This document shows, one piece after another, positions 40,176 through 63,990 of a DNA stretch of 64,000 nt. This DNA is from Blastocystis sp. Blastoise. Its lineage: Eukaryota > Protista > Bigyra: Opalinata. The position numbers and the translations under genes were made by a program. A model generated the notes under the pieces. That model saw nothing but the letters and a program-made list of their open reading frames with translations. It did no database searches and was not told the origin of the DNA. Where the stretch lies: contig JBBPEB010000002.1 in NCBI GenBank assembly GCA_039096225.1, positions 496,001 to 560,000 of the forward strand, read 5' to 3'. Numbering within the stretch: the stretch's first letter is position 1; the number at the start of each line of letters is the position of its first letter.

Positions 40176-40223
40176 TTCGAGAACATTCTATAACATTCTC
40201 GAAACTTCTAGAACATTCGAGAA
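40176..40223. promoter_or_regulatory. Heat-shock-element array upstream of recombinase A
   Basis: TTCgaGAAcaTTCtaTAAcaTTCtcGAAacTTCtaGAAcaTTCgaGAA: alternating nGAAn units. Confidence 0.75.
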
Positions 40224-40299
40224 CATGAGAATCTTAGATATTTTATTTTGATTTTCTTATGTATTATTCTTTTGAAAATAGAAGTTTTAGAGATTCTAC

Positions 40300-41247
40300 T
40301 TGAGAAAATCAATGAAAAATACAAATTATGACAAGTATCTTTTGGTTATACAGAATTCAAATTATTCTGATATTTGGAAAAAACGTTTAACCAATTATTT
40401 CAATTTATATATTTTCCCATTACCATTTAAAAAGTTCTCAGAATTCTTAAAGAATCCTTATTCATTCATGGATTATATGGTAAATGAACGTAAAATCAAA
40501 ATTAGTCCAATGAAATCGTTATGTGAATTGATATTATTTATTATACGTAATGTTTCTTCATTAAATAAAGAATGTATTTTAAATAAATGGTGTGAATTTT
40601 ATGTGATTATCAATTCAATGTATGAAAAATATCTGGATAATAAGAAACGTACTTTAATTCAAGATCTTATTAAAGATGGTATTACGACTCCATATTTACA
40701 TGAATATCACGATAAATTAGAAAATTATAATCCATTACGATTAATATTAGATTTTTACTCCTATCTTCCTCCTGCTCGTGCTGATTATGCTCAATTATTC
40801 ATTCTATCACCAGAAGATACTATTGATCCAGCTATTCATAAGAATTATATTGTTTATGATAAAGAGAAACATACTGGTTCTATTCTATTAAATGATTATA
40901 AAACTGCTGGTAAATACTCTACAATTCAATTAGATGCACCAAAAGAATTGATTGAAGATCTAGAATTACTCTTAAAAAGAAAACCAAATCGTAAATTTAT
41001 ATTTGAATCTTCTGTAAGAACTGGATTTACTACTAAAGCATTTGATTGGTTTGTGAATAAGCATTTAAAACAAATCCATCCAAAATTGACCATTAATGCA
41101 TTAAGAAAATTATATGCTACAACTACAACCAATACATTCCAAGATATAGAAAATTCTGCTTCTGCTTTATGTCATAATGATTATACACATATTAATTCTT
41201 ATGTATCTTTAGAAAATAATAATTTATTTAAAAAATTAATTGAATAA
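40300..41247 (+). CDS. Tyrosine recombinase A
   Basis: PPARADY, DYKTAGKY, INALR, LCH..THINSY; probable start ATG 40312. Confidence 0.87.
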   Translation: MRKSMKNTNYDKYLLVIQNSNYSDIWKKRLTNYFNLYIFPLPFKKFSEFLKNPYSFMDYMVNERKIKISPMKSLCELILFIIRNVSSLNKECILNKWCEFYVIINSMYEKYLDNKKRTLIQDLIKDGITTPYLHEYHDKLENYNPLRLILDFYSYLPPARADYAQLFILSPEDTIDPAIHKNYIVYDKEKHTGSILLNDYKTAGKYSTIQLDAPKELIEDLELLLKRKPNRKFIFESSVRTGFTTKAFDWFVNKHLKQIHPKLTINALRKLYATTTTNTFQDIENSASALCHNDYTHINSYVSLENNNLFKKLIE

Positions 41248-41320
41248 TTTTATGTTTTTATGTTTGTTTTGTTTTAATTTTGAATATAACTAAACAACTA
41301 GTAATAAAAGGATATAAAAA

Positions 41321-41722
41321 TTAATTAAAAGGTAAGAAAGATAAATTATTATTATTATTTTGATATTGATTTTGTTGTTGATTACTTTTCATAGTAGGCA
41401 TAAACATATTATTGGGTTGAATAAGATTTTTATCATCTTGATATTGATTCTCATTCTTCATATATTGTTTATCCAATAGCATTTCAAGACGTTGATGAAT
41501 CACAGGATCATCTATATAAAGTAGCATATTTCTACAATAACTTAGTTGTAAATCACTAAGATTCTTGTTGTTATTGTTATTTAAAAATTGTTCTAATAGA
41601 TTTGCTATTTCATTCTTTTTGGATTTAATTCCTTCTTCTTTTAGATTCTTCATCACACGACAAAAATAAGAATAACTAAGATATTTCTTGTTCATTATTA
41701 AAATTAACCAATGATTAAACAA
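41321..41722 (-). CDS. Conserved hypothetical viral protein
   Basis: Homolog of 3080-3565; start uncertain. Confidence 0.7.
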   Translation of the reverse strand: MFNHWLILIMNKKYLSYSYFCRVMKNLKEEGIKSKKNEIANLLEQFLNNNNNKNLSDLQLSYCRNMLLYIDDPVIHQRLEMLLDKQYMKNENQYQDDKNLIQPNNMFMPTMKSNQQQNQYQNNNNNLSFLPFN

Positions 41723-41790
41723 AACAAATTAATTATATAAAACACTAATATAATAAATTAAAGATTCTACAAATAGAGCCAGTTCAAAAT

Positions 41791-41813
41791 GAATGTTCTA
41801 GAATGTTCTAGAA
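41791..41813. promoter_or_regulatory. Heat-shock-element array upstream of ORF 41321-41722
   Basis: GAAtgTTCtaGAAtgTTCtaGAA. Confidence 0.7.
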
Positions 41814-41817
41814 TGTT

Positions 41818-42438
41818 TTAACAAGGCATAAGATTTCCATTAGAAAGTAAATAAAGTAAAGAATAATAAAAGCAACCATTTGCATTACTTGTAGTTTTTT
41901 GGTGTTGAATAGGATTATATTGAATATTATGATTTTGAATAAATGATTTTGAAAAAGTAGGTTCATTTCCTAATGATGAATAGTGTTCTATGTTTTTATT
42001 ACCATTATAAATAACAGCTTCAAAATGACCATTATAAGGATCACTAGGACTTCCATGAAAGATCATATTAAATTTAGTTTGATCTTGATCTATATTTTGT
42101 TCAAAATCATCATAACTATTATAATAATTATAAGATTGAGAATTCGTTTTATTTAATTGTTTCATAACATTTTCAGCACGATCACAAGCAACAGAAGAGG
42201 TAGGTTTATTTAAATAAGCATAATTATATAATTGAGATATTAAAGAATTTGGTATATTACAATATTGAGATAGAGTTTGTTTGAAATTATCAGGGGATCT
42301 AGGAGTAACATGACGAGTTTTATCAGATATAATAGGATTATCGCAATTCATTGAATTTTGAATTAATTTCTCATCTTTACTCTTTACCAGATCCCCTCCC
42401 CTGAGTTTTTTGATAACATATATTTCTTTTTTTTCCAA
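41818..42438 (-). CDS. Adenain/Ulp1-like cysteine protease (probably made as a -1 frameshift fusion)
   Basis: GHFEAV, YSSLG, NPIQHQ, NGCFYY; ORF starts at TTG and overlaps the upstream gene in the -1 frame. Confidence 0.8.
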   Translation of the reverse strand: MEKKEIYVIKKLRGGDLVKSKDEKLIQNSMNCDNPIISDKTRHVTPRSPDNFKQTLSQYCNIPNSLISQLYNYAYLNKPTSSVACDRAENVMKQLNKTNSQSYNYYNSYDDFEQNIDQDQTKFNMIFHGSPSDPYNGHFEAVIYNGNKNIEHYSSLGNEPTFSKSFIQNHNIQYNPIQHQKTTSNANGCFYYSLLYLLSNGNLMPC

Positions 42439-44111: not shown

Positions 44112-44186
44112 TTTTTTATTTCAATTATAAAATTATTTATAAACAAAACAAATATATTAATAAAAAATAAATTTAACATTAAAAAT

Positions 44187-44780
44187 TTATAAATTAGTTA
44201 AATCAATAATAGTATCATTACTATTAGTATTCTTCGTAGATTTATCGATGACTTTAATAGAACGAGCATATAAACCAATATAATACTTGTTATTATAACG
44301 ATGAATACCATGTATTGTAAATAATACTTTACATAACGTATTTGGTGGAATATACTTTTCACGTATTTCTTCGTAAGTTAACTTAGGATCTTTACCGATA
44401 TTAATCTTCTTATCTCTTTTATCAGTGATATCAATAGTAACATTCTTCGATGCATTAATAGGTACTTTAATTGTAATCTTATATTTACCATTATCCATAC
44501 GTACAAAATTAACAATATCACCATCAGGACATAATTCACATAATTTACGATAAAGTTCTTTATAAGCAGTTAAGAATACTTGATTATCATCTTCAATTGT
44601 TAATAAAGTCCATTTATCACGTGTAACAATATAACCAAATAAACATGGTGTAGCATCAGTAGAAATACATACACGATGATTATTATTTAAAAGAACAGCA
44701 TTTTCTTTGGTGTCATCCCATTGTAAATTAAAGTTCGAAGTATCAAGAATAGTAGGTTTTTTAAATTCAGTTGTAGACAT
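44187..44780 (-). CDS. Putative OB-fold ssDNA-binding protein
   Basis: 197 aa; PCLFG..helix..ITIKVP..CKVLFTIHGIH..IGLYARSIKV pattern resembles NCLDV/T7 gp2.5-like SSBs. Confidence 0.55.
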   Translation of the reverse strand: MSTTEFKKPTILDTSNFNLQWDDTKENAVLLNNNHRVCISTDATPCLFGYIVTRDKWTLLTIEDDNQVFLTAYKELYRKLCELCPDGDIVNFVRMDNGKYKITIKVPINASKNVTIDITDKRDKKINIGKDPKLTYEEIREKYIPPNTLCKVLFTIHGIHRYNNKYYIGLYARSIKVIDKSTKNTNSNDTIIDLTNL

Positions 44781-44857
44781 TTTTAGTTAAGTATTTAGTA
44801 AAAATATAAGTATTTTAATACTAATATTTTACGATATTCTTTTCAAATGAATCAATT

Positions 44858-44915
44858 TTCGAGAAGGTTTGAGAAGGTTCTAGAAGGTTCTAGAAGGTTC
44901 GAGAAGGTTCTAGAA
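44858..44915. promoter_or_regulatory. Heat-shock-element array upstream of the SSB-like gene
   Basis: 10-bp period TTC(t/g)aGAAgg repeated about six times. Confidence 0.75.
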
Positions 44916-45109
44916 AAAAAAGAACACTTGAATAATCTAATGGAAACATTTTAACGGAATCGAACCATGATACTGTGGTTACATATTTCTTTAATAGATC
45001 CATTAGACCATTCAAGAATTCTATTTGAAACTATTCTATTCTCCATTTAAACTTTGTGTAATTAATTTAAAAAATAAACAAAACAAAATAATTAATTAAA
45101 TAAAAATAA

Positions 45110-45637
45110 TTAATGATCAAATATTTCAGATATAGAAGGAATAGAATATTCGGATAATAATGAAACAATTTCTTTAGAATCATCATGAATCTGTTTCAAA
45201 TCTTGTTTCTGACTTTCAATCTTTGTTTTTAAATGATCAACAGTACAATAAATACCATTTAATATATTATCAGCTGTTTCAATAGTTTGAAATAAAGATT
45301 CGAATTGACTGGATATATTTGTTAACTCCTCATTTGTAAATAATAATGCTTGCTTATCAGGATTTGTATTTACTTGATCTTGAAATTGTATTGGTTGATT
45401 GTTAACCGAATGATATCTATCTGGATTTTTAGATACGTAAACATCATTGATTGGATGAATATCTTGAGGTGGATCTTCAAACATGATTTCGTCACGCGAA
45501 TTAAAACAGAAATCATTATCATTGGGTAAAGCCATAGGATTTGCAGAAACACTATTTTCAAATGGATTCAACAAGGGGGATATCATGGCTTGACCGAAAG
45601 GGGATAAACTGGCGGAAAGATTATCAGGAATTTCCAT
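45110..45637 (-). CDS. Hypothetical protein, C-terminal coiled coil
   Basis: 175-aa ATG ORF; divergent from 45991 across a CCAAT-containing spacer; AACAAAACA downstream. Confidence 0.65.
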   Translation of the reverse strand: MEIPDNLSASLSPFGQAMISPLLNPFENSVSANPMALPNDNDFCFNSRDEIMFEDPPQDIHPINDVYVSKNPDRYHSVNNQPIQFQDQVNTNPDKQALLFTNEELTNISSQFESLFQTIETADNILNGIYCTVDHLKTKIESQKQDLKQIHDDSKEIVSLLSEYSIPSISEIFDH

Positions 45638-45906
45638 GATTATTTAAACCTTCAAAAGTATTTTTATACAATATATTAAATATACTATTTTTAGTGTACA
45701 GTTCTTCATTTCAGTTGCTAACAAAAGCCTATTGCTTCCAGCTGGAAAATAAGCCAATAAAATAACTTATTTCGTATGACACATCGTCGTCATCGTCTAA
45801 TTGTGTTTTACTAATTTTTTTATCCAATCAGATTACAGATGCCGACTATGCTCGTCATTGAAACACAAATACTAAATGCTAAGTCGACAAAATTAGCCAA
45901 TCAAAT

Positions 45907-45924
45907 GAACCTTCTAGAACATTC
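45907..45924. promoter_or_regulatory. Heat-shock element next to CCAAT boxes
   Basis: GAAccTTCtaGAAcaTTC; CCAAT at ~45754, ~45824, ~45897. Confidence 0.65.
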
Positions 45925-45990: not shown

Positions 45991-46659
45991 TTGATAAATA
46001 CAAATTTTCTCTCTGTAACGATATTCGCGATTATAATGCAATTTAATCTTTCTGCTGATTCCCGTAAATGTCTTCAAACTGTTCGTATGGAACTTCTAAA
46101 GAATTCTAAGAAGGCTGTTGAAGTTCATAAGAATGTTCTTCGTGATATTGATTTACATCAGTCTCAATTGAATAGAGAAAAGAATCTATTGGGTATTGCA
46201 AAATCTAAAGAACGTCTTGCTTCTTTCGAAGTCGAAAACTATAGATCAGCTTTAAAACGTATAAACGCGGTTATTAAAGGTCTTGAAGATTATGAAGAAT
46301 TCGCTGCTGATATTTATACTCAACAACTTAATGAAGAACAAGATATTCAAGATATTATCAATACTGAAGATCTTTTAGAAAGTGATAGAACTACTATTTT
46401 ATGTTCTGAAGATTCTAAAGAACATTCGAACTCTAAAGATGATGATTTTGATATTATGAAATTCCATATGGAAGATGGATTTCTTTATGATGAAAAAGGT
46501 AAAGTTTATTCTTATGAAGTTGTTCATGCTAAGAGTATTAACAAGATTAAAAGAGATCCTTCAAAACAAATGTATTTCTGGGATGGTATTTTATATGATA
46601 AGAATGGATGGCCTCATTCATGTACATATATTAATAGTCAAGAACCAATTGAAATTTAA
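45991..46659 (+). CDS. Hypothetical coiled-coil protein
   Basis: Likely start MQFNLS; duplicated DG.LYD..G motif at the C-terminus. Confidence 0.65.
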   Translation: MINTNFLSVTIFAIIMQFNLSADSRKCLQTVRMELLKNSKKAVEVHKNVLRDIDLHQSQLNREKNLLGIAKSKERLASFEVENYRSALKRINAVIKGLEDYEEFAADIYTQQLNEEQDIQDIINTEDLLESDRTTILCSEDSKEHSNSKDDDFDIMKFHMEDGFLYDEKGKVYSYEVVHAKSINKIKRDPSKQMYFWDGILYDKNGWPHSCTYINSQEPIEI

Positions 46660-46769: not shown

Positions 46770-46906
46770 TTCTAGAAGGTTCTAGAAGGTTCTAGAAGGT
46801 TCTAGAACATTTAAAATATAAAGTAATATTTACTATTATAGAATGTTCTAGAAGGTTCTAGAAGGTTCTTGAATGTTCTAGAAGCTTCCAAAACTGACTT
46901 CTAGAA
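46770..46906. promoter_or_regulatory. Two heat-shock-element arrays upstream of the primase-helicase
   Basis: TTCtaGAA x4 at 10-bp period (46770-46807) and GAAtgTTCtaGAAggTTCtaGAAggTTCttGAAtgTTCtaGAAgcTTC (46841-46888). Confidence 0.78.
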
Positions 46907-49977: not shown

Positions 49978-50022
49978 ATAATAATATTTTTTTTATTATA
50001 AAAAGTTGTTTTGTTTAAAAAA

Positions 50023-51819
50023 TTAATAAAATTTAAATTGAATTCCATGAAAATGTTTTTTAGGGACTTTGACTTTAAAGAATGCATTACCTTTATGTTT
50101 TTTCAATAAACCATGACCCCGATGAATAGGGTCTAAAGGAGGCATAGTAGAAAGACTACGTAATGCATAAGTATCTGAATTATTCATAACTATAGGTGTA
50201 GAGTTTTCATCTTGGGTATTCTGTTGCATAAGAGATGCTTGAGTATTCGTTAATTCTGAATCTGTTGTATTATTATGTAAATGATCAGGTAATAATTGTT
50301 TATTACGTATAAAACGATTATAACGATCTCTAGAATTCTCTGGGACTTCTTCAGATTCTAATGAACATCCTACAGGTAATTCATTTTCTAAATCTGTTTT
50401 ATCTGGATAATGATGCTTTAATAGATCTTTATAATATCTTAATGTAATCATTATAGTATCATTATCTGATGAATATTGTTCTAATGTAGATAATATCGAT
50501 TCTGATTTCATATTGAAATTCTCTTTACCAAATACATCTTCATAGTCTTCTTCATATTGTTCTATACGATCATTAAATCGTTTACATAAAAATAATAATT
50601 TATTCAATTGATTAATTTCTCTTGTATAAGTAATATTATTCATATCAATATGAAATGTTCTTGTTTTATTATCTAAATCTTGCAATTTAGTTGAATGAGA
50701 AGATAAATAAGGAGATATATAATTTTCCATATGTGTTGATTGACTATGTAACATCTTCATAATCGAATTTTCAAAGAGTTCTACACCTTTAGATTCGTGT
50801 TCTGAATCATTATGTTGGAATTGTGTTTCTCTTGATAATCTATAATAATATTGAGCAAATAAATGTCTTATAATATCACAACCATTAATTAAAGAATTAT
50901 TCTGTTGTGTTTTATAAATCCATCCTAAATGAGGTTTTATATATTCATCACCAAATTTCAAATCACGTACTTTACCACCATTCTCAGTAACAAATAAATA
51001 ATGTCTTGGAAATAAACGTAAGGATCTAGCTAAGACATTTAGATATTCTTCTGATAAATACTGATAAGTAGGATATTCATTCTTACCAATTTCAAATCGA
51101 TTCTTTGTATCATTCACATGAATAGTCAAAGTATTTAAATCAATATAATTGGTTGTTCTTCTTAACGATAAAGGAATTTGTTGACCACGAGTATAGATTA
51201 CACAATCATTATAATCATTACGAGCACATAATGTATCATAAGTTAAAACTAATAAATAACTATTCACATAATATAAATCATTAGGATTCTCTAAATAATT
51301 CTTTTTGGTGATATTAATGATTTCTCCCCAATCAGCTTCACAATTAATAATTTTCTGAGTGATTTCATAATGTCTTGAATAAGTAGCATCAATTTGTAAA
51401 GAACCCCATAAATGTTCCCATTTCTTTATATTTTGTGGAGTAAATGCTTTATAATTAATGATATCTTCATCATCTGTACAAATAGATATATTCTTCATTA
51501 TATAAGTAATCATTTGCATATAATTAGCTACTGTAGTATTGGATAATCCACCTTGTTGTCCAGGAGCTTCTGTTTGTGTATGTTGCATAACATTTTGAAA
51601 TTGAAATGGATCTGTTAAGACTTCTACACAAAAGAATGGTTCTTCCATATCATCTATTTGAATTCGTTCTTCATTACGAAATTTCTTACATATTGTTTTG
51701 ATCCATTTCTTCCAATTTATACTTGTTGATAATTGTATTTTCTTCCAATGTAATAATTGATCTATACAATTTGTAAAGAATTCTTCACAATCTTTATCTG
51801 AATAACCTGTTGATTGCAT
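50023..51819 (-). CDS. Tyrosine recombinase B
   Basis: CARNDY, NDTKN, DIIRH, MLHSQSTHMENY. Confidence 0.8.
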   Translation of the reverse strand: MQSTGYSDKDCEEFFTNCIDQLLHWKKIQLSTSINWKKWIKTICKKFRNEERIQIDDMEEPFFCVEVLTDPFQFQNVMQHTQTEAPGQQGGLSNTTVANYMQMITYIMKNISICTDDEDIINYKAFTPQNIKKWEHLWGSLQIDATYSRHYEITQKIINCEADWGEIINITKKNYLENPNDLYYVNSYLLVLTYDTLCARNDYNDCVIYTRGQQIPLSLRRTTNYIDLNTLTIHVNDTKNRFEIGKNEYPTYQYLSEEYLNVLARSLRLFPRHYLFVTENGGKVRDLKFGDEYIKPHLGWIYKTQQNNSLINGCDIIRHLFAQYYYRLSRETQFQHNDSEHESKGVELFENSIMKMLHSQSTHMENYISPYLSSHSTKLQDLDNKTRTFHIDMNNITYTREINQLNKLLFLCKRFNDRIEQYEEDYEDVFGKENFNMKSESILSTLEQYSSDNDTIMITLRYYKDLLKHHYPDKTDLENELPVGCSLESEEVPENSRDRYNRFIRNKQLLPDHLHNNTTDSELTNTQASLMQQNTQDENSTPIVMNNSDTYALRSLSTMPPLDPIHRGHGLLKKHKGNAFFKVKVPKKHFHGIQFKFY

Positions 51820-52377: not shown

Positions 52378-54861
52378 TTATATATAAGAGATAGTTAATA
52401 AAACAACACAAGGATAATCACAAGTAATAAAGAACATATTATCATGAGGTAATAACTTTAATAATTTACGATTACAATAATAAACATTCTTATTGATCTT
52501 ATTTGATATACCTTCATATTTAATACCATTAGAATAGTAATAAGGTAGATTTGTAGTATCAATAACATGAATATTATTCTCATATTCATTAGTAAAACAT
52601 CTTAATGAAATAGGATATAAGTAATCAGTGGATTGACCATACACTGATATAATTTGTATATTCGTTAAGTATTGATATCCATAGACATTGGTTTTCTTCA
52701 ATTCATAAATTAAATTCTTACTCGTACTAAAATCACAATATACTTCATCATAAGCTTTGAAACGTATATCACTACCATTCGGTTCACATATATTACAAAT
52801 GATATTTCCTTTGAATAATTCATCAAATCTTAAATCTATATGATGATCAATGGTGATTGGAGAATTTATATTACTATATGTAACATATTTATCAGATAAA
52901 GGAAAACTAAATGTAGGATAATAAGATCCATTTATATATCCAGTACATAATTTAGATGCATTTGTTTGGATTGTATCTGTATCATTCTGAATAATAATAT
53001 CTTTTAAGATTTTATTCTGGATATTCAATGTAGGATATTCAGCATAGAATTGTGTGTCTGCTGTTAAACAATTCAAACATAATTTCTTAATGGTTTCACT
53101 AGGTTGAATCGTATCGACTGTATCTGAGAATTCTAAGAATCCTCTTAAAATACAATTATTATTGAAATTCACATATTGTTTATTTTTATCAGTATATCGT
53201 ATAATAATATCTTGAATAGTATTTAAATAAGGAGACACATTAATATTCATAATATCATGAAATTCATTATTGCCTTTATAATTATTCACATTAAATGAAT
53301 ATAAAGAATTCTGACTATTATCTACTATATTCGATTGAGCTATTAACATTCCTTTTGGACGACTACTATCAATATTATGAACACCATAATTAACAATTTC
53401 ATCATGACCTAATTTATTATAACCTAAGATTTCACCTAATTCTTGAGCTTGAGAGAAATCTATATGATGACTATCAGTATAACACTTATAATTACCATCT
53501 AAATCTAATGTATTCAAATCAACAGGTGTATCTGGTAATAATTGTTTACCATAAGATACATGCCAAGCAAAACATCCTTGTTCATCATAAACCAGATCAG
53601 GTCGTATATTATGTAGAGCACCACGATACTTAAATAATGAATGTTCTATATCTGTAGCTGTAAATGTGAATGAAGTAGAATCATTGCCTTTACATGATAA
53701 ATATATTATATATCCATCCTTATTGTCCATAGTTTGAGCATCTTTGGATATATTTAAATAATCAGTATAAATTGTATTATTGATTGAACTTTCTAATAAA
53801 TCATAGAATTCGTCTTCAATATAGTCACCTGGAGGAACAGTGAATGTAGTTTCATGAACACCATCATAACCACTCAATTGTCGAACAATCATTGTATTAT
53901 ATCCATCTTCAACAGTAATTAATGTTTTGATATTAAATATATCATCATGTTTAACTGGATTCTTAATTCTTTGTAAAACAATTTCTGGTTTATTTCCAGT
54001 GTGTATTAGTGTTCCATTACCGTCAAATAAACCAGTAAATAAACTATTTTCCATTTTCAGAATCATATTTATATTTGGAGAAGTTACATTTGGAAAATAA
54101 AAATCATGTTCTTCATTAATTACACATTGAATTGTTCCATCACTACTTTGTGTAGGAATATCATGAATGAACTTACTAAATACACCATTATTTGCATATT
54201 CTTTTAATGAATAAGTCCCTGTTGTTCTAACAGGAATAGGAAAAGAAGTTGTTTTGGGTCGATATAATATTATATTATCATCATCATATTTCATCATCAG
54301 TCGATTTTTGTTATCTAACCATACAGAAGATACCAAACAAACAGCGATCCACCAAAATTCTATATCTGTATAAGTTCCTTTTGGGAAATTAAAACCACGT
54401 CTTGTTTTAGCAATATAAAATTCACAATAAAAATCATCTCTATTAATTGTAATTGTTGGAATTTTCTTAATTTTAACAGTAGAATCGATATCAGGAGATT
54501 CACTTATTAATGGCCTATCACATATATCAAAATGACATAGTTCTAATAATTGTGGAATTGAATAATTTTTCTGATCTAAAGTGATTGTATATACGTTATT
54601 ATTTCCATTAACACGAGTATTTATATATTTGAATATTTGTGTTTTTGTGAATGTATCAAATAGAGGCACACTTTCACTACCAATTAAATTAAGATCAATA
54701 TAAGAAATGATATTTTTAGTGATATCAATAGAATTCGATAAATGTATATTGAATTGATTATCAATACAACGAACATCAATAGGAACTACATGTGTTTTAA
54801 TACGAGTATCCTTCTCTTCTAATGAAGTCTGTTCTTCTTGATTATCTTCATCAAGTTCCAT
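52378..54861 (-). CDS. Long penton/minor-capsid-like protein with repeated insertion domains
   Basis: FPKGTY, VPPGDY, LGEILGY, QSNIVDN, IIIRYTD..VNF resemble Polinton penton motifs; ends conserved with element 1, middle divergent. Confidence 0.55.
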   Translation of the reverse strand: MELDEDNQEEQTSLEEKDTRIKTHVVPIDVRCIDNQFNIHLSNSIDITKNIISYIDLNLIGSESVPLFDTFTKTQIFKYINTRVNGNNNVYTITLDQKNYSIPQLLELCHFDICDRPLISESPDIDSTVKIKKIPTITINRDDFYCEFYIAKTRRGFNFPKGTYTDIEFWWIAVCLVSSVWLDNKNRLMMKYDDDNIILYRPKTTSFPIPVRTTGTYSLKEYANNGVFSKFIHDIPTQSSDGTIQCVINEEHDFYFPNVTSPNINMILKMENSLFTGLFDGNGTLIHTGNKPEIVLQRIKNPVKHDDIFNIKTLITVEDGYNTMIVRQLSGYDGVHETTFTVPPGDYIEDEFYDLLESSINNTIYTDYLNISKDAQTMDNKDGYIIYLSCKGNDSTSFTFTATDIEHSLFKYRGALHNIRPDLVYDEQGCFAWHVSYGKQLLPDTPVDLNTLDLDGNYKCYTDSHHIDFSQAQELGEILGYNKLGHDEIVNYGVHNIDSSRPKGMLIAQSNIVDNSQNSLYSFNVNNYKGNNEFHDIMNINVSPYLNTIQDIIIRYTDKNKQYVNFNNNCILRGFLEFSDTVDTIQPSETIKKLCLNCLTADTQFYAEYPTLNIQNKILKDIIIQNDTDTIQTNASKLCTGYINGSYYPTFSFPLSDKYVTYSNINSPITIDHHIDLRFDELFKGNIICNICEPNGSDIRFKAYDEVYCDFSTSKNLIYELKKTNVYGYQYLTNIQIISVYGQSTDYLYPISLRCFTNEYENNIHVIDTTNLPYYYSNGIKYEGISNKINKNVYYCNRKLLKLLPHDNMFFITCDYPCVVLLTISYI

Positions 54862-54943: not shown

Positions 54944-56437
54944 ATGAGAATCTTAAGAATTAAAGATAATATTCCTATTCAAAGCAATACTGATATTCTA
55001 TCTAGTCCTTATATCTTTCAATATCATTGGACTAATGTGGATAATACTTATATCAATTTCAATCAATCATATTTGGATCTTACTGTCAAGGCAACTGTCA
55101 CAGATAAAGCTGGACCAGTTTCTGTTTATTTAGATGAAACAGGTACTTCTGCTAGTTTCACCTATGATCAATTATGTCAATATTTCTTGGATCAATTAGT
55201 TCAGAAAGCTAATATTTATTCTATTATTGATACTACTGATGTTGAAATGGTTTATACATTACCTGATGGATCTGATCGTGCTTTAAAATATGAAGAAAAC
55301 TGTACACATGCTTCACGTGGTCGTAAAATGATATTATTAAAAGATATTAGTAAAAATGATTTAGAAAAATCTATGTATGGTGAAGATTTATCTGCAGATA
55401 CTTATGAATTGAATTCTATTCGTTATATACGTGCACATCCAGATGAATCTATTCATATTGCTATTCCTTTATATCTTATTAGTGGTTTAGGTGTTGATGG
55501 AGATTCTTTAATATTAACTAAACATTTCAATATGTTATTTAGAACTAGTACTATTGAATCATTAATTGATAATAAAATGAGTATTTATTTCAAGAATGGT
55601 ACTGCTACCAAAACTACCGAATGGTTACATTTAGATGATGAAAATTGGTTTAGTACATTTAAGATTGAATCAGCTACTATGAATTTAATGACTTATAAAG
55701 ATATTCAGTTCCAATCGAATGAATTATATAAAACTATACCTACATGTATTCAAGTTGATTATCAAAATACAAGATTAACTACTAATCATTTCAATATCAA
55801 TAGAGCTTTACCATTTATACCTGAATATATATTATTTTGGTTTACAAATGGTTATAGTTCAACAACTATTAGTAATATAGCTAGTCCAAATGTATGGCCA
55901 ACATATCAAAGTTGTTTGATTGGTGATGTTCAAATGTTCCCTCAAACTGAATTCCCTACTCAAATGTATTATCATAATCTTACTACAAAAGGTCATGTCT
56001 TCAATAATGCAGAAACTACTAGTTTATCTTGTCCTAATAAGAATTTATATTGTTTATGGGCTGATAATTCAAATCCTGAAACTATTCTTAAATATGATGA
56101 ATGGATTAAACATCCTATTTATATTATTCCAACAAAATCATTAATGAATATCCAATCAGATAGTGGTATTGAATTGAATTTCGATTGTAATGTTGATGTT
56201 CATGATGTTAAATATGAACATATTGATTCATCCACTGTTCCTGATGGACAAACGTGTCAATGGAAAAGTTACGTTGATCCAACAGATAAAAAGACAAAAT
56301 ATCACTGGGAAGCTGATACTGCCTCTTATAAGGTAGCTTCTCATGCTGGTATTTATAAACATACTACTACTGATCTAAGTGATAGTTCTCCTTATACCTT
56401 ACATATGATTGCTGTACGTAGTGTGCGTGATATTTAA
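54944..56437 (+). CDS. Putative major capsid protein 1
   Basis: 497 aa; ortholog of 12595 (HASRGRKMI, FPQTEFPT, EWIKHPIY, RS.RDI). Confidence 0.65.
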   Translation: MRILRIKDNIPIQSNTDILSSPYIFQYHWTNVDNTYINFNQSYLDLTVKATVTDKAGPVSVYLDETGTSASFTYDQLCQYFLDQLVQKANIYSIIDTTDVEMVYTLPDGSDRALKYEENCTHASRGRKMILLKDISKNDLEKSMYGEDLSADTYELNSIRYIRAHPDESIHIAIPLYLISGLGVDGDSLILTKHFNMLFRTSTIESLIDNKMSIYFKNGTATKTTEWLHLDDENWFSTFKIESATMNLMTYKDIQFQSNELYKTIPTCIQVDYQNTRLTTNHFNINRALPFIPEYILFWFTNGYSSTTISNIASPNVWPTYQSCLIGDVQMFPQTEFPTQMYYHNLTTKGHVFNNAETTSLSCPNKNLYCLWADNSNPETILKYDEWIKHPIYIIPTKSLMNIQSDSGIELNFDCNVDVHDVKYEHIDSSTVPDGQTCQWKSYVDPTDKKTKYHWEADTASYKVASHAGIYKHTTTDLSDSSPYTLHMIAVRSVRDI

Positions 56438-56614: not shown

Positions 56615-57838
56615 ATGGAAGGATTCCCAAGACAATTCTTACCTTCAAAGGCAAATCAAACTATTAAACCTGTACAAATTCCTATTCTAGTTTCTACAAG
56701 TCAAGATTTATTAAATCAACCTTATCCATTTGAATTCTTATATAATTCAGTGGATAGCCCTTATATTGATTTCAGTAATTCATTCTTAGAACTGAATTTC
56801 AATATTACTGGTACTAGAGACAAAAATTCAACATCTTCAGTTGTACAACATTCTAATATCTATAGTATTATTGATAAAATTACTACAGATCTTACGTTTG
56901 TATCTCCTACTGGTCAAGATATTCTTATTAATTATTCTGAATCTTCTATTGAATCCAGTAAAGCAAGAAAATTTGTTACTATTAAAGAATTAAGTAAAGA
57001 TGAAATTGATAAATCTATGTATAGTATGACAGAATGCTTATATAATAACACGTTGAGTAGTATTGCTGGAATGGAAATGAAAGAAAAAGCTCAAGTTATT
57101 ATTCCTTTATCTCTTATTACTGGTCTTGGTACATTTGATTGTGCTATTAAAGTAAAATCTTTGAAGATGCAATTCGTTACAAATTATTTAAAGAATCTAT
57201 TTACCGGTACCACTGTAATCACTGCATTGAAATTTGATCGTGTTTATATTCATCTTCAACAAATCTATGATATTAATTTTGGTAATGATCCACGTGCTTT
57301 GATTAAATGTATTCCTAATAATTGTCAGATATCTGCATTCACTACACCTGTTTATTCACAAGCATCAGTATCAGGTACACCAACTCCACAACAATTCTTA
57401 TCCAATAGAAGTGTTGTTTTCGTACCTGATTATTGTATGTTATACTTCACAAATCAAGAGAAGAGCATGATTCCTATTAAAACTGAATTATTAAAATCAT
57501 GTCAATTCCAAATTGGTGGTCAAAATATCTTACCAAAGACGGATTTCCCTACTACGTATAAAACAACGAATCCATCACAAATTATCCCTAATGCTATGCT
57601 TTATAATACTTGGAGATGTAATAGTCATCCTCAATCTCCTTTAAATGGTGAAAAGTGGTATGAACAACCTATTTATATATTCCCTATTTCAAGTGTTGTT
57701 GATGTCAATACGCGTAGTGGTTGTGAAGTTAATATCTCATTATTAACTGAATATACTGGTGGAACTGTTACTGGTCCTTATACTTTATATGCTCATTTTA
57801 TATTTGTTAAATTTGTTAGAGATGGTGCTACCAATTAA
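56615..57838 (+). CDS. Putative major capsid protein 2
   Basis: 407 aa; ortholog of 14183 (YNSVDSPYIDFSNS, CIPNNCQ, GEKWYEQP, FVKF.R.GA.N). Confidence 0.65.
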   Translation: MEGFPRQFLPSKANQTIKPVQIPILVSTSQDLLNQPYPFEFLYNSVDSPYIDFSNSFLELNFNITGTRDKNSTSSVVQHSNIYSIIDKITTDLTFVSPTGQDILINYSESSIESSKARKFVTIKELSKDEIDKSMYSMTECLYNNTLSSIAGMEMKEKAQVIIPLSLITGLGTFDCAIKVKSLKMQFVTNYLKNLFTGTTVITALKFDRVYIHLQQIYDINFGNDPRALIKCIPNNCQISAFTTPVYSQASVSGTPTPQQFLSNRSVVFVPDYCMLYFTNQEKSMIPIKTELLKSCQFQIGGQNILPKTDFPTTYKTTNPSQIIPNAMLYNTWRCNSHPQSPLNGEKWYEQPIYIFPISSVVDVNTRSGCEVNISLLTEYTGGTVTGPYTLYAHFIFVKFVRDGATN

Positions 57839-57935: not shown

Positions 57936-58616
57936 ATGACATCAATATCTCATCTAAGTAAAATTACAAGTCAAATCTGTCATGAACAATTCAATTATAC
58001 TTTGGATTTAGTAGGTAAAAATATTACTCATATCAATACATTAGTGAATACAAGTGATATCATTAATATTCCTGAATTTCTTTTGTATGATACCGCATCT
58101 GTCCCATTTCAAAAATATACATTTCCAGCTGGTAACTATTCATTGGAAGAATTCTTAGAAAAAATTGTTGAAATTGGAAAAAATATGAAATCATTAGTAG
58201 ATGGAAAGACTTGTGCTTATTATTATGATAAAGAAACAAAAACATTTGGAACATATGCTCAACACAGAATAGATGAATCTAAAATATTGTTTGATTTGTT
58301 AGGTATTAAAACCTATTATTGGGATTATACTAGCCAACCTATCGTTTTTACTGATGATTATATATCCAAGAATATTTCATGGTATAAGATCTATATGTTA
58401 CGTGTGTATTGTGATATTATTAATAAAGATAATGATTTGATTTCTATTCCTTTATATGCTAAACAAGGATTTGATAATACATTTGCTTTAAGTGATTTAT
58501 CTATTCCATGTATTGATGGTAAATATACAGATATCCAATGGGAAGTATATGATCAATTAAATAATCCAATTGATTTATCAAATACAAATCTTTATATATA
58601 CTTTACAGCATCTTAA
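57936..58616 (+). CDS. Penton/minor capsid protein
   Basis: FPAGNYSLEE, DLLG, RVYCDII, VYDQLNNPID: Polinton-type penton pattern, between MCPs and ATPase. Confidence 0.7.
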   Translation: MTSISHLSKITSQICHEQFNYTLDLVGKNITHINTLVNTSDIINIPEFLLYDTASVPFQKYTFPAGNYSLEEFLEKIVEIGKNMKSLVDGKTCAYYYDKETKTFGTYAQHRIDESKILFDLLGIKTYYWDYTSQPIVFTDDYISKNISWYKIYMLRVYCDIINKDNDLISIPLYAKQGFDNTFALSDLSIPCIDGKYTDIQWEVYDQLNNPIDLSNTNLYIYFTAS

Positions 58617-58687
58617 TAAAATCATTTATTTATCATTAACTTATCATTAATTATTTTTTTTTGTTTTGTTGATAAAAATCATATAAA

Positions 58688-59725
58688 ATGGTGAATAAAA
58701 TAAATCCATTAAAAGAAACACGTAAAGGATGTGGAGTTTTAGAATTTAAATATGGAAAATCTCATCATAAAACATATGAATCGAAATTCATATTGATTAT
58801 TGCAAGAACATTCTCAGGTAAATCATTCTTAACTGTGAATCTATTATGTTCTATGGATCTTAAAAATAAATATAAACAAGTCACAGTTATTTGTCCTGAT
58901 GCATCCAATAAGAATGAATGTTATACATCCTTTCAAGATATTTGTGAACATGCTGGAATTGATTATAAATGGTATGATTCTGTTGATGATAAATTTAAAA
59001 AGATTAAGACTATTGATGAATTAGTCAATACATATAAATTACCAGAACATAATTTTATTGTATTGGATGATATCTATCCATTATCTAGACAAACCAAACA
59101 ATTGATTGTATCTATATTATCTAAAGGTCGTCATTATAAACAGAATGCTATTATATGTCTTCAAAGTCATACAGATGTTACCAATCAATCTATATTAAGT
59201 CAAGTATCTCATTTCTTTATTAATAGTCAAATCTTAAAACGTGATCCTGGATTCTTACCAGATAAATTAAAGATTATGCCATCAAATCTAAATGAAATTC
59301 TTACAGATGAAGAATTAATGAATGATCCACATCAATTCTTTATGTTAAAACAAGGTAGTGATGATTTAACGATATGGACAAATCCTGATTGTGGTAGTAA
59401 ACAGAATGTATATAAGATGGTAAAGAAAAGGAAATGGACAGAAGAAGATAGTGAAAAAGAGAAACGAGAAGAACAAGGTGAAGTATCAGGTAGTGGTATT
59501 AAACGTCCTAATGAACATATATCTACATATGAAAAGAAAATGAAGAAGTTTTTACCTGTTGAAGAAGAAGTCTCATTGAAAGGTATTGAACGAGATGAAA
59601 AAGATAAACCTAAAGAATCCATCTTACAAATCATACAAGATCAAATCATACAAGATAGTCAACGACGCATTTTTAATCCTTATTTAAATAAAAAACATTA
59701 TTCTGGTTATCCATCTTTTCATTAA
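58688..59725 (+). CDS. A32/FtsK-type genome packaging ATPase
   Basis: IARTFSGKS (Walker A), FIVLDD (Walker B), KGRHY..IICLQ (Arg finger and sensor). Confidence 0.9.
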   Translation: MVNKINPLKETRKGCGVLEFKYGKSHHKTYESKFILIIARTFSGKSFLTVNLLCSMDLKNKYKQVTVICPDASNKNECYTSFQDICEHAGIDYKWYDSVDDKFKKIKTIDELVNTYKLPEHNFIVLDDIYPLSRQTKQLIVSILSKGRHYKQNAIICLQSHTDVTNQSILSQVSHFFINSQILKRDPGFLPDKLKIMPSNLNEILTDEELMNDPHQFFMLKQGSDDLTIWTNPDCGSKQNVYKMVKKRKWTEEDSEKEKREEQGEVSGSGIKRPNEHISTYEKKMKKFLPVEEEVSLKGIERDEKDKPKESILQIIQDQIIQDSQRRIFNPYLNKKHYSGYPSFH

Positions 59726-59780
59726 TTTTTTTTAATATTTTAATTTGTCATATAAACCATAATTATTTTATTGTTTTGTT

Positions 59781-60806: not shown

Positions 60807-60882
60807 TTATTTTAACTTTTATTATTTCATAATTAATTATTTGTTTTGTTATATAATTATTTTAAAATTAATACAATAAATA

Positions 60883-62061
60883 ATGCAAAGTAATTTAGGA
60901 GATAGTGTAACTCTCTATGATATTTTATCAAGAAATCAGAAAAAACAATCTTGGGATCCATGGTTACCGAATTCATATATTTGTCAAGATGAACAACCTG
61001 TACAACCTTTAGCACATGATCCTAATGCACAAGGATCTATGTATAGCTCAATGGCAGTTCAAGCATTAAGAAATCATGGTCAATCAACTGAAGATATGTT
61101 TATAGCTACTATGAATTCAGCTAAAGCTAATGGAGATACTGCAAGATACTCATCTATGTTATCTCAATGGCAAACTAATTATGGTGTACCTACTACCAGT
61201 AAGATATGGTATGATGCTAGTAATCCTAATAATTATCAATATGAAACGTTATTATCTTCAATAAAAGGCTTAAATGGATTGAATTCAGAAGCATATAAAC
61301 AGAATAAAGAGAATTATGAATTCTATTCAAATGCTCAAAAAGATATGTATGATCAATTAAACAATATTTCATATCAAATTAAAACAAATAATGATGACAT
61401 TCATGCTGAAGCAGCATCAATGAAACAAAATATGACTAATAATTATGAAAATCTACATAAAGATAACGAATATTTGAACTCAAAGATGGATACAAATGAA
61501 AATAATCGTCAATCAGATAATAATATTACAAACTCTAAAATGGATACATATGAAAATAATCGTAAAAAAGATGTTAACAATACAAATTCGAAGATGGATA
61601 AATATGAAAATAATCGTCATCAAGACTACAACAATACACAATCTAGAATGGATAAATATGAAAAGAATCGTCAAAATGATACTAATAAAACAAACGCTAA
61701 GATGGATGAATATGAAAGTAACCGTAAAAAAGATGCCAAAGCATTTGAAGATAAGATGGATGAACAAGGTATGCATTATGATATTGTTGAAAGTGGCATA
61801 CCATTCACAATTTATGTTAATGGTAAGAACTCAAAAGTAATATGTAATCAGCCAGAGTTTAAGGATCAGGTATTCCTTCTTAAAGATGAAAAGATTTATG
61901 TCAGATCAGCTGAAAAGTCAGGTTATATATATAAAAAGTACGGAACAATGCCACTTGATGAATTCATTAGCAAATATAATGAAGGCTTATTTAATGAAAA
62001 TAAGGCACTTCCTGATAAAGAACATAGTGGATTAAGAAATCATCAAAACGATGAAACTTAA
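60883..62061 (+). CDS. Hypothetical protein with 18-aa tandem repeats
   Basis: NSKMD.YENNR..D.N.T x5-6; N-terminus shared with 17903. Confidence 0.75.
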   Translation: MQSNLGDSVTLYDILSRNQKKQSWDPWLPNSYICQDEQPVQPLAHDPNAQGSMYSSMAVQALRNHGQSTEDMFIATMNSAKANGDTARYSSMLSQWQTNYGVPTTSKIWYDASNPNNYQYETLLSSIKGLNGLNSEAYKQNKENYEFYSNAQKDMYDQLNNISYQIKTNNDDIHAEAASMKQNMTNNYENLHKDNEYLNSKMDTNENNRQSDNNITNSKMDTYENNRKKDVNNTNSKMDKYENNRHQDYNNTQSRMDKYEKNRQNDTNKTNAKMDEYESNRKKDAKAFEDKMDEQGMHYDIVESGIPFTIYVNGKNSKVICNQPEFKDQVFLLKDEKIYVRSAEKSGYIYKKYGTMPLDEFISKYNEGLFNENKALPDKEHSGLRNHQNDET

Positions 62062-62183
62062 TAGACTATATTATATTTACTTATTTATGCAATATTATGT
62101 TTGCCATTTAAGTTATAATTTTGTTAATATATATTTATTTTTTTGTTTTGTTTTAAAATTCATAATTATTTTATTAAACTAAA

Positions 62184-63674
62184 ATGATACAAAGTGCTCG
62201 TTTAAATGTTTCAAATAAAGGATTAGTAGGCGTAAATCATCGTGCTACTGGTCATGAATATCGAAATTATATTGTTCCAGGATCTATTCCTGATGGAGAA
62301 GAACGTTATCCAATTAATTATTCTATTGCTCCAAATTCATTATATGCTGTTAAGAAAATTGAAAGTAATATGGTCAATAGAGCAACATCCAATCCATTTT
62401 TCTCCTATTTATCAGAAACCAGACAAGATATTATACAAAGTTCATTAGAAGAATCGGAAGAAACTGAACCAATAGATGAAGGATCTGGGTTATTACCTGA
62501 TGGTAGAATTCCAAAGAATTTTACAAGAAAACTCATTTATGCTCATGATTATGTTTTACCTTATATGAAACAAAATCATATGTCTGACTATGCTAAATAT
62601 TCAAGATTATTAAATCCTCGTACAATTGATAGTGCAATTGATTTTACTAAAAGAGATCGTGATGGTTATTTATATTCTAGAGGTGGTAATTTATTTTCTA
62701 ATATTTATCACACTGTGAGTGATGTATATAATGTGTCTGATAAATTAACTGGAGGTATTAATAACATCACTCATGGAATAAGTAATGCTGTTGATTATGG
62801 TGCAAATAAATTCAAAGATCTCAAGAATTGGTGGAGAGATATTAATGTTGATCCACAAGAAGGATTCAATGATATTAAAGGAAAACTTGTAAGTGATAGA
62901 AACAATTTATATGATAATTGGAAATTAACTGATGATAATGAAGCTAAGAAAAATAATAAAATATTAGCTGATAACTATTTCAGATTTGCTCATATGTCAG
63001 GTAATGATACTAAAGAACAAAGACTTAACAAAAAGGTATCTTTAGATAATCAAGCAACAACATTTCATAAAAATTATATTCCATATGCAGAAAACCCAAC
63101 ATTTGTTAATAAAGTTGTTAATACTGCAACAAATGTATCAAAACCTGTGTATAATGGCGTTAAGAAAGTTGCAAACTCTATTGTTAGTGGTACAAAGAAC
63201 GCGTTTAATAGTTTTTCTAATTGGTGGTATGGTAAAAATCCAGAGGAAGAAATACCGCAAACAGAAAATCCAATAGAAACAAATAATAATGTTATATCAA
63301 CTCCTTCATCTACCCCTGATACTCTAACACAAGAAAATATTCATAATATTACTATAGAAGATTCAAATCCTCCAAATCTAATTCCTCTTATAAATGATCC
63401 TACTGTTCCTTTACCTGATACTGTTCCTATGTCTCAAGCAATCACGAATAATTTCACTCCAAATATTACACCTGTAGCCCCTATTCCTAATCCAGTAGAA
63501 AATGTCACTCTTGAAAATAATAATAAAAGAAACAAAGAAGAAGATGATGAATTTCAATCATTTGATGAAGATGATGGTGAGGTATTTTATGATCTCGAAG
63601 AAGGTAATGGATTACGTAGAAAAAGACGTATTTCAAAAAATAAAAAATTAAGAAATAAACGTAGAAAACATTAG
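62184..63674 (+). CDS. Putative core precursor 2
   Basis: GVNHRATGHEYRNY, SRGG, basic tail GNGLRRKRR; ortholog of 18196. Confidence 0.65.
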   Translation: MIQSARLNVSNKGLVGVNHRATGHEYRNYIVPGSIPDGEERYPINYSIAPNSLYAVKKIESNMVNRATSNPFFSYLSETRQDIIQSSLEESEETEPIDEGSGLLPDGRIPKNFTRKLIYAHDYVLPYMKQNHMSDYAKYSRLLNPRTIDSAIDFTKRDRDGYLYSRGGNLFSNIYHTVSDVYNVSDKLTGGINNITHGISNAVDYGANKFKDLKNWWRDINVDPQEGFNDIKGKLVSDRNNLYDNWKLTDDNEAKKNNKILADNYFRFAHMSGNDTKEQRLNKKVSLDNQATTFHKNYIPYAENPTFVNKVVNTATNVSKPVYNGVKKVANSIVSGTKNAFNSFSNWWYGKNPEEEIPQTENPIETNNNVISTPSSTPDTLTQENIHNITIEDSNPPNLIPLINDPTVPLPDTVPMSQAITNNFTPNITPVAPIPNPVENVTLENNNKRNKEEDDEFQSFDEDDGEVFYDLEEGNGLRRKRRISKNKKLRNKRRKH

Positions 63675-63748
63675 TTAATATTAATTTGTTTTATTTATTA
63701 TTATTTTTAAAAACTAAACAATTTGTTTTGTTATTTATAAAAATTAAT

Positions 63749-63916
63749 TTAAAAATTAATATAATTCTTGATATAATCTTCATATTCATCTTCACTTTCA
63801 GTTTTAATAGTATCCACTTCAGAATCACTATCACTTAATTCATCAACTTCAAAGTTTCCATAAGGTTTCCAAGTACCTTGTTTATAATCTGGAGCAAATT
63901 GCTTTGGAGAATCCAT
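63749..63916 (-). CDS. Small acidic protein, 55 aa (absent from ORF track)
   Basis: MDSPKQFAPDYKQGTWKPYGNFEVDELSDSDSE...; HSE array upstream; same slot as the small minus gene of element 1. Confidence 0.55.
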   Translation of the reverse strand: MDSPKQFAPDYKQGTWKPYGNFEVDELSDSDSEVDTIKTESEDEYEDYIKNYINF

Positions 63917-63962
63917 AATATATAGTATAAAAATAGAAAAAATTCACAATACAATTTTATTG

Positions 63963-63990
63963 TTCTAGAATGTTCTAGAATGTTCTCGAA
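63963..63990. promoter_or_regulatory. Heat-shock-element array
   Basis: TTCtaGAAtgTTCtaGAAtgTTCtcGAA. Confidence 0.72.

Follow-up and report, generated by a model that had tools for sequence, protein, structure and literature searches.

Heat-shock-element-type arrays upstream of genes of a predicted Polinton-like virus in Blastocystis as candidate host-driven early promoters

A capsid-coding element and its genes

We analysed a 64,000-nucleotide stretch of the genome of Blastocystis sp. Blastoise, here called the window, which holds two elements, element 1 and element 2. The left end of element 2 abuts a Helitron, and its right end lies beyond the window. Judged by its genes and a modelled capsid fold, element 2 is a predicted Polinton-like virus: it encodes a double jelly-roll major capsid protein (MCP), a packaging ATPase, and a primase-helicase together with a tyrosine recombinase (YR), for which the profile support is weak (E 0.087). 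Neither pPolB nor an RVE integrase is among its 18 open reading frames (ORFs) of at least 100 aa, so element 2 does not qualify as a classical Polinton/Maverick.

Table 1. Genes, arrays and a short motif of element 2, with window coordinates.
Feature	Position	Strand	Remarks
HSE-type array	40176..40223	.	10 pentamers, 1 mismatch; 88 bp before YR-A
YR-A, likely tyrosine recombinase, 311 aa	40312..41247	+	Pfam Phage_integrase, weak, E 0.087
orf124, conserved, function not recognised	41321..41695	-	33% identical to element 1 orf161
AACTGRCT motif	41777..41784	-	just downstream of array, 89 bp before orf124 ATG
HSE-type array	41791..41813	.	5 pentamers; 95 bp before orf124; also within 3' flank of protease gene
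Likely adenain-type maturation protease	41818..42351	-	51% identical to element 1 copy; no upstream array
SSB-like gene, 197 aa	44187..44780	-	ESM Atlas score 0.94-0.95 to Nucleocytoviricota clusters
HSE-type array	44858..44915	.	12 pentamers, 1 mismatch; 77 bp before SSB-like gene
orf175, function not recognised	45110..45637	-	C-terminal coiled coil; shares divergent gap with orf207
HSE-type array	45907..45924	.	4 pentamers; adjoins CCAAT word (45897); 111 bp before orf207
orf207, function not recognised	46036..46659	+	matched only in copies from Blastocystis sp. Blastoise
HSE-type array	46770..46807	.	8 perfect pentamers
HSE-type array	46841..46888	.	10 perfect pentamers; 86 bp before primase-helicase
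Primase-SF3 helicase fusion, 1000 aa	46975..49977	+	PHROG DNA primase E 6e-9; alignment
YR-B, second likely tyrosine recombinase	50023..51819	-	catalytic residues in alignment
Probable minor virion protein, 827 aa	52378..54861	-	label inferred from synteny with element 1
MCP1, paralogue of MCP2	54944..56437	+	27% identical to element 1 MCP2, E 9e-40
MCP2, double jelly-roll major capsid protein	56615..57838	+	model pLDDT 72
Likely packaging ATPase	58688..59725	+	PHROG terminase-family E 1e-10; P-loop; adjoins MCPs
orf55, acidic small ORF	63749..63916	-	ORF listing
HSE-type array	63963..63990	.	6 pentamers; 46 bp before orf55

The model of MCP2 matched the Sputnik, PBCV-1 and mavirus capsids in the PDB, and its best match in BFVD was a "MELD virus sp." protein (TM 0.63). 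Two ORFs, at 57936-58616 and 52378-54861, are penton (single jelly-roll) candidates by position only. We read R-K-R-H-Y residues of YR-A from an alignment with YR-B and element 1, and take this set, in YR-A and YR-B, to be the tyrosine recombinase motif; a His/Cys motif read by eye in the product of the 41818..42351 gene presumably marks an adenain-type protease. Among members of the Atlas clusters matched by the SSB-like protein, 15-18% carry DUF5871 and 10-13% carry DUF2738, which we take to be an SSB family. Relatives of the primase-helicase gave weak matches to DUF5906 and PriCT_2, and a PDB sequence search with the helicase profile returned nothing. Matches of YR-A to histone H2B and of orf175 to polyubiquitin were judged spurious, the products of shallow profiles or repeat-summed scores. 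Mimicry of HSF-binding protein 1 by orf175 or by a 78-aa ORF of element 1 was also considered and found no Pfam support (E <=5).

The element 2 family has about 18 near-identical copies in the host, with about 99% protein identity. Since 12 helicase copies differ at only 7-13 of 1000 residues, the family appears to have spread recently. Related capsid proteins came mainly from assemblies (82 of 87 matches from ENA or Logan only), and their occurrence in many metagenome assemblies suggests a widespread family. Metagenome relatives are 40-60% identical, some of them on contigs longer than 20 kb. At the DNA level, no relative of element 2 was confirmed in viral contigs, metagenome contigs, genome contigs or phage records.

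GAA/TTC arrays and their placement

A tolerant scan of the whole window recovered exactly the seven arrays of alternating GAA and TTC that the original prediction had listed; together with a 3-unit run inside coding sequence at 7002, they make up all 8 stretches found. This is far above chance. Perfect runs of at least 5 units numbered 6, against 0 in 90 of 90 Markov simulations (orders 1, 3 and 5), and TTCTAGAANNTTCTAGAA matched 7 times, against 0 matches in 100 shuffles. TTCTAGAAnnTTCTAGAA occurs 7 times within the arrays. A heat shock element (HSE) consists of at least three contiguous inverted nGAAn pentamers; the seven arrays have 4-12, and, as had been proposed, they agree with the consensus of heat shock factor (HSF) and stand in putative promoter position. 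Rfam gave 0 matches across 39500-64000.

The spacers were said to vary while GAA and TTC are kept, and this stood in part. The cores are kept at 163 of 165 bases, a count that is partly circular because the GAA/TTC bases were themselves used to pick the arrays. The spacers are mostly of two copied types: GG/CC or TG/CA in 21 of 23 GAA-nn-TTC spacers, and TA in 17 of 25 TTC-nn-GAA spacers. Because two types dominate, the variation is limited and compatible with copying of a 10-bp unit. HSF1 sites are known to be low in A directly after GAA. In the arrays, 42 of 50 internal pentamers have an A directly before GAA, but only 1 of 46 has one directly after it, the array gaps being 82% A+T; units inside one array are not independent, so these spacer statistics overstate the case.

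All seven arrays are intergenic, though intergenic DNA makes up only 10.8% of element 2. They lie in six gaps, 46-111 bp from the ATG (77-111 bp in five of the six), where promoter position is judged by this distance. The predicted placement, about 50-200 bp upstream of six genes, therefore holds, with one correction: the ORF given as starting at 45991 has its first ATG at 46036 (orf207). That five of the six lie 77-111 bp from an ATG is expected of promoters, not of one origin. The orf175 ATG is 269 bp from the nearest array, and the remaining 12 of 19 genes are at least 746 bp from any, in agreement with the claim that none precedes the virion genes or YR-B. The region upstream of YR-B is AT-rich (12% GC) and resembles those of the virion genes.

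The dominance of two spacer types is also what could be left by slippage or conversion of a short palindromic seed, giving arrays with no regulatory role. Sixteen-unit arrays in 19%-GC, nearly ORF-free contigs and a giant-virus contig with one 5-unit array between two convergent stop codons fit such an origin. The placement in element 2 does not: six sites are all upstream of start codons, in a narrow distance range and in either orientation, while no array lies in coding DNA, at the two convergent 3' gaps that contain no 5' end, or in the remaining 40 kb of the window. We consider this origin very improbable.

Arrays were further claimed to wire replication and recombination genes. Such a function is recognisable in only three of the six array-led genes, and the other three lack one. 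Arrays lead 3 of 4 replication or recombination genes but none of the 10 probable virion genes (Fisher p 0.011); with firmly labelled genes only, the comparison is 3 of 4 versus 0 of 4 (p 0.14). A test of 6 of 9 versus 0 of 10 genes (p 0.003) was set aside, the unknown genes having been classed after the arrays were seen. The motif AACTGRCT, with 6 occurrences against 2.1 expected (a weak excess), is a possible second promoter element.

Element 1 was predicted to be without such arrays. Its homologues of YR-A and orf124 indeed have array-free promoters, so the arrays are either not ancestral to both families or were lost. The contrast is a weak one, since most of the genes concerned are absent there: we detected no homologue in element 1 of the SSB-like gene, orf175, orf207, orf55 or the primase half. 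With only two promoters to compare, element 1 is a poor control. Where element 2 has HSEs, element 1 has repeated CCCCTGGAT words.

Candidate binding proteins and a proposed activation

The presence of an HSF in the host had been put forward as a check, and it was confirmed: in strain Rus-B (= Blastoise), 2 proteins carry the HSF DNA-binding domain, IPR000232 (published annotation table, PMC10690189 supplement file 7). An oomycete HSF, PITG_04701 of Phytophthora, binds TTCTAGAA by EMSA, with three units better than one or two; the majority of the Phytophthora HSFs tested recognise words with no gap, and many of them are stage-specific (PMC11267843). In yeast, TTCTAGAAnnTTCTAGAA is the consensus of Hsf1 ChIP peaks, and 7 of 8 perfect promoter sites of this kind are occupied after heat shock (PMC6340206). 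The element 2 arrays share with these canonical HSEs (PMC6340206; PMC11267843) the inverted nGAAn units, the TTCTAGAA core, at least three units and the upstream position. They differ in that they front viral replication genes instead of chaperone genes, reach 10-12 units and are predicted sites.

Going by this sequence match, a protein of the HSF family very probably binds the arrays, which are likely host-HSF-driven early promoters. That the activation is linked to stress is probable, though by a smaller measure. On balance, we lean towards the seven arrays being host-HSF binding sites that switch on early genes under protein-damaging stress.

A host HSF-family protein might instead bind constitutively or at a life-cycle step such as encystation or gut exit, so that the arrays would be strong early promoters or developmental switches and no heat alarm. 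All 10 tested Phytophthora HSF genes are up-regulated in some life stage or growth condition, PITG_04701 mainly in zoospores (PMC11267843); in yeast, a core set of sites carries Hsf1 whatever the condition (PMC6340206), and in latent cells HSF2 is found at the promoter of KSHV ORF50 (PMC12047821). However, it was at long perfect arrays that occupancy in yeast followed heat shock most closely (PMC6340206), and constitutive drive of about 18 replicase copies would probably be costly. We hold this alternative to be unlikely, while by analogy with the often developmental expression of oomycete HSFs, heat itself may be the wrong trigger. Counted against a stress link is that those endogenous virophages that have been characterised reawaken in response to a giant virus and not to host stress.

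Bacterial elements, which have no HSF, also contain GAA/TTC arrays of this spacing. Their spacers differ from those of element 2: in 9 distinct arrays from IMG/VR contigs, A precedes GAA in 21 of 66 cases and follows it in 36 of 68. Some ORFs of bacterial integrative elements contain seven-unit arrays, and in an integrase-linked group both array-bearing ORFs tested (L002 and L016) carry Lin1244_N, which we take to mark a replication initiator. Searches of viral contigs with exact or HSF-like array patterns gave 0, 1 and 0 matches. The bacterial arrays suggest that the 10-bp repeats of element 2 could bind an element-encoded protein, as iterons, recombinase accessory sites or sites of an autoregulator, with a convergent likeness to HSEs. 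A 20-bp inverted match common to the two terminal arrays (40176 and 63963) points the same way, as do three array-led genes and orf175, all without assigned function. Yet the arrays stand at six separate promoter positions rather than at one origin, and their spacer signature is unlike that of the bacterial arrays. Moreover, no element 2 protein matched an HSF-like, HTH or winged-helix family (orf175, orf207 and orf55 were compared by sequence only). The predicted fold of orf124 is a plain three-helix bundle and not a winged helix (model pLDDT 75); it had no Atlas match, no Foldseek match at E 0.001, and generic helical matches only (best Z 8.8). An element-encoded binder thus seems quite improbable to us.

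Also counted against the HSF reading were the array-free YR-B, the array-free element 1 homologues of YR-A and orf124, the same-spacing arrays elsewhere, and the ungapped words and stage-specificity common among the Phytophthora HSFs.

If host HSF is the binder, its trimers would load cooperatively on the 4-12 pentamers, and host RNA polymerase II would be recruited to them; no RNA polymerase gene was recognised in element 2. The early set switched on would comprise the recombinase, single-strand-binding and primase-helicase genes plus the three unknown genes. Genome copying would then fall to the primase-helicase and SSB, and excision or resolution to YR-A. The capsid genes and YR-B, with their very AT-rich upstream class, would come on later and in a different way, YR-B possibly acting as the integrase of the next cycle. 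The claim that HSF triggers excision goes a step further because YR-B has no array, and that activation leads to excision and particles is doubtful, if conceivable. In sequencing runs, a third of the sequence words were present in one of three runs, none of them listed as RNA. Contigs from that run, its kind guessed, cover 28 of the 30 bins that make up the left two-thirds of element 2. One of them, at 44216-44791, is nearly as long as a gene and lies over the SSB-like gene. The contigs are unable to rank genes; none of the 3 contig joints in this single run of guessed kind resembles an excision junction. We weighed these data neither for nor against the HSF reading.

Known systems and what the arrays could mean

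Activation by a host HSF is a known principle. The Arabidopsis Ty1/copia retrotransposon ONSEN is, like element 2, a mobile element with HSE-type arrays, and host HSFs are established as the route of its activation by heat (PMC13602373). A single LTR promoter and an RNA intermediate set ONSEN apart from element 2, a capsid-coding dsDNA element with six predicted gene promoters. In herpesviruses, HSF2 acts at KSHV ORF50 and EBV BZLF1 and HSF1 at EBNA-1, so that host HSF on nGAAn sites of a latent DNA virus promotes lytic genes; in element 2 the binding is predicted (PMC12047821). The herpesvirus sites have 2-3 pentamers at one switch gene of an episomal animal virus (PMC12047821), unlike the long arrays directly before several replication genes of an integrated protist virus.

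Polinton-like viruses (PMC10120064; 10.64898/2026.06.19.733378; Tetraselmis, 10.1101/2025.10.09.676808) and EMALEs (PMC10945749) share with element 2 an apparent size of about 24 kb, a double jelly-roll capsid, a packaging ATPase, a primase-SF3 helicase, a YR and an endogenous life in protists. Where their reactivation is known, it is by a giant virus through helper-type promoters, while element 2 has two MCP paralogues, two YRs and predicted host-type HSE promoters. The Blastocystis hominis MELD virus is likewise a midsize dsDNA virus from Blastocystis data with divergent virion proteins, but has PolB and an adintovirus-like integrase in place of the primase-helicase and YRs (PMC8502044). The accessible text of that paper has 0 matches to "heat shock", and no promoter analysis was found in it. 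Our literature search turned up neither a description of HSEs in Polinton-like viruses nor one of element 2.

Exit from dormancy is known among endogenous Polinton-like viruses only for those woken by giant viruses. A host stress factor wired to replication genes would, if true, be a second, helper-free route. A wider scheme, which we offer tentatively and think rather unlikely as a whole, casts element 2 as a gut-protist provirus that host stress induces without a helper, a eukaryotic counterpart of SOS prophage induction: HSF would fire a six-promoter early regulon including an excising YR-A, YR-B would come late for re-integration, and sister families in the same genome would be tuned to different host signals. 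A cultured strain with about 18 copies makes the stress-induction idea testable. Unexplained virus-like particles have been seen in Blastocystis (PMC12835684), and if the idea is true, element 2 could be a candidate genome behind them.

GAA/TTC arrays in element 2

We scanned the whole window for alternating GAA and TTC at 5-bp steps, the inverted nGAAn pentamers of a heat shock element (HSE). Seven arrays were found, in exact agreement with the coordinates of the original prediction, and the sole other match was a 3-unit run. Six perfect runs of at least five units were observed, against none in 90 Markov simulations, and TTCTAGAANNTTCTAGAA matched seven times, against none across 100 shuffles. 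All seven arrays are intergenic, in an element whose intergenic share is 10.8%. Their proposed placement upstream of particular genes also holds, with gaps of 46-111 bp before six ATGs: those of YR-A, a likely tyrosine recombinase (88 bp), orf124 (95 bp), the SSB-like gene (77 bp), orf207 (111 bp), the primase-helicase (86 bp) and orf55 (46 bp). For orf175 the distance is 269 bp, and for the remaining 12 of the 19 element 2 genes at least 746 bp. Association of arrays with gene class gives a p of 0.011 counting ten probable virion genes and of 0.14 with the four firmly labelled virion genes only. The array feature is real and ordered.

Positions of arrays and other features in the window
Feature	Position	Detail
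Array 1	40176-40223	10 units
Array 2	41791-41813	5 units
Array 3	44858-44915	12 units
Array 4	45907-45924	4 units; CCAAT word adjoins
Array 5	46770-46807	8 units
Array 6	46841-46888	10 units
Array 7	63963-63990	6 units
GAA/TTC run	7002	3 units
CCCCTGGAT, element 1	447-455, 1565-1573, 1587-1595, 1634-1642	four copies
Terminal inverted repeats, element 1	66-393, 24282-24433	
Dam-type adenine methyltransferase, element 1	5360-6160	Pfam E 1e-33
GAACTGGCTC, element 2	41780	adjoins an array
Helitron (Rep/Pif1)	33801 to about 39600-40050	hairpin and CTAG end at 33801
Imperfect inverted repeat	40078-40119	GC-rich; GTGGTGGTG ... CACCACCAC
MCP2, element 2	56615-57838	

Spacer bases had been said to vary while GAA and TTC are kept. 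Some differences are present, but a few spacer types dominate: TA fills 17 of 25 TTC-nn-GAA spacers, and GG/CC or TG/CA 21 of 23 GAA-nn-TTC spacers. The arrays were probably built by local duplication of 10-bp units and copying between promoters, an origin that does not itself account for their retention. We regard a neutral slippage origin as very unlikely.

The reported lack of arrays in element 1 is true at YR-A and orf124, the only comparable genes, but the contrast is weak. By tblastn, element 1 has no homologues of the SSB-like gene, orf175, orf207, orf140, orf55 or the primase half. These gaps, together with the fragmented state of some of its remaining genes, make element 1 a poor control.

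Element 1 has features of its own. Its replicase consists of the helicase half only, and its methyltransferase occupies the position of the SSB/orf175/orf207 block of element 2. The copies of CCCCTGGAT (0.09 expected) precede its small left-end ORFs, at places taken up by HSE arrays in element 2, and are possibly sites of another host factor. The terminal repeats contain CCAAT words and GAACTGGCTC, and the left one has a tandem duplication with a 170-bp period.

Host heat shock factor and the alternatives

The host does have proteins with the domain of the heat shock factor (HSF) that had been invoked: the supplementary table for Rus-B (= Blastoise) includes two with an HSF DNA-binding domain (PMC10690189). 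In Phytophthora, also a stramenopile, PITG_04701 is described as binding TTCTAGAA in EMSA, with three units preferred (PMC11267843). The reported ChIP consensus of yeast Hsf1 is TTCTAGAAnnTTCTAGAA, and after heat shock seven of eight perfect promoter sites were occupied (PMC6340206). The 24-kb element 2 holds seven TTCTAGAAnnTTCTAGAA-type matches. Its internal pentamers have A before GAA in 42 of 50 and after GAA in 1 of 46, and the gaps are 82% A+T.

We think it somewhat probable that stress-activated host HSF drives six early genes, followed by replication, possible release by YR-A and later expression of the capsid genes and YR-B, the second likely recombinase. HSF would load cooperatively on the arrays and turn the early genes on, the primase-helicase and SSB would replicate element 2, YR-A may free it, and the capsid genes and YR-B would follow on another signal. 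The full prophage-like induction model is, in our view, less likely than not. Such a mechanism would act like that described for ONSEN (PMC13602373) and for herpesvirus switch genes with HSF2 (PMC12047821), unlike EMALEs (PMC10945749) and Tetraselmis PLVs (10.1101/2025.10.09.676808), which are described as woken by a giant virus. Neither HSEs in Polinton-like viruses nor element 2 itself turned up in our literature searches; bioRxiv preprint supplements on endogenous viruses may list these elements. Heat shock and viral insertions are both absent from the main text of the Rus-B genome paper (PMC10690189).

Oomycete HSFs are often stage-specific, according to PMC11267843, and therefore the trigger may be developmental; HSF-driven arrays with constitutive or developmental activity seem rather unlikely to us.

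GAA/TTC arrays also occur elsewhere. Seven-unit arrays were found at 18 loci in IMG/VR (9 distinct arrays), most of them in phage or bacterial integrative elements and several inside ORFs, so such arrays arise without HSF. ORF arrays lie in bacterial elements L002 (3870-3902; tandem integrases), L003, L005, L007, L015 and L016; both array-containing ORFs tested have Lin1244_N, and these arrays are probably origin iterons. Three of the IMG/VR loci are 19%-GC contigs carrying a 16-unit repeat. Unlike element 2, the IMG/VR arrays have A before GAA in 21 of 66 cases and after it in 36 of 68, a contrast that is only suggestive because units are not independent. On a giant-virus MAG contig (L019, 6387-6414), a five-unit TTCTAGAA array lies between two convergent stop codons. 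Among element 2 proteins we found no array binder; of orf124, orf175, orf207 and orf55, the one folded was orf124, whose model is a predicted three-helix bundle with no specific structural match. We judge a viral binder improbable, and prefer host HSF.

Transcription signals and relatives of element 2

Element 2 looks to have two promoter classes. Upstream GC is 7-17% for the virion genes and YR-B and 19-25% for array-led genes; the protease is an exception (29%), and its upstream region overlaps the end of the next gene. AACTGRCT follows two arrays, 83-89 bp from the ATG, and one gene of element 1 has it at 82 bp, a weak enrichment. At the 3' side, TGTTTTGTT follows 15 of 19 element 2 genes (40100-64000) on the sense strand, 17-91 bp past the stop; the 9.3 kb of flanking non-viral DNA examined has a single copy. 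Together with the absence of a recognisable RNA polymerase gene in element 2, this suggests single-gene transcripts from host machinery. TGTTTTGTT is similar to the downstream gene element known from human Blastocystis. That element is reported as not enriched in tortoise strains (PMC10690189); the virus may derive from a different Blastocystis lineage or may have its own 3' signal.

The MCP2 model is a double jelly-roll matching the capsids of Sputnik, PBCV-1 and mavirus, and its top BFVD match is a MELD virus protein. Element 2 also encodes a second MCP paralogue, a P-loop ATPase and the primase-helicase. The Atlas clusters closest to its SSB-like protein are nucleocytoviral, and two of its proteins carry tyrosine recombinase residues. 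This set fits the Polinton-like viruses as described in PMC10120064 and 10.64898/2026.06.19.733378. The Blastocystis sp. Blastoise annotation holds identical or near-identical proteins, and 18 of the 19 members of the helicase cluster are named from it. Among the 15 cluster members listed, the 12 full-length helicases differ from the window protein at 7-13 of 1000 residues. For YR-A, nine variants show changes at 2-5 of 311 residues. These small differences indicate recent spread of the family.

MCP2 copies (P0095-P0102) form two variants differing in short patches, and the mosaics P0099 and P0102 suggest recombination between genomic copies. At least four related virus families occur in this genome (P0077, P0079, P0080); MCP2 of element 1 differs from P0079 at 3 residues.

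The right end of element 2 falls beyond the window. On the left, a Helitron abuts the YR-A promoter, and the inverted repeat that precedes the first array by about 55 bp may mark the left end of element 2.
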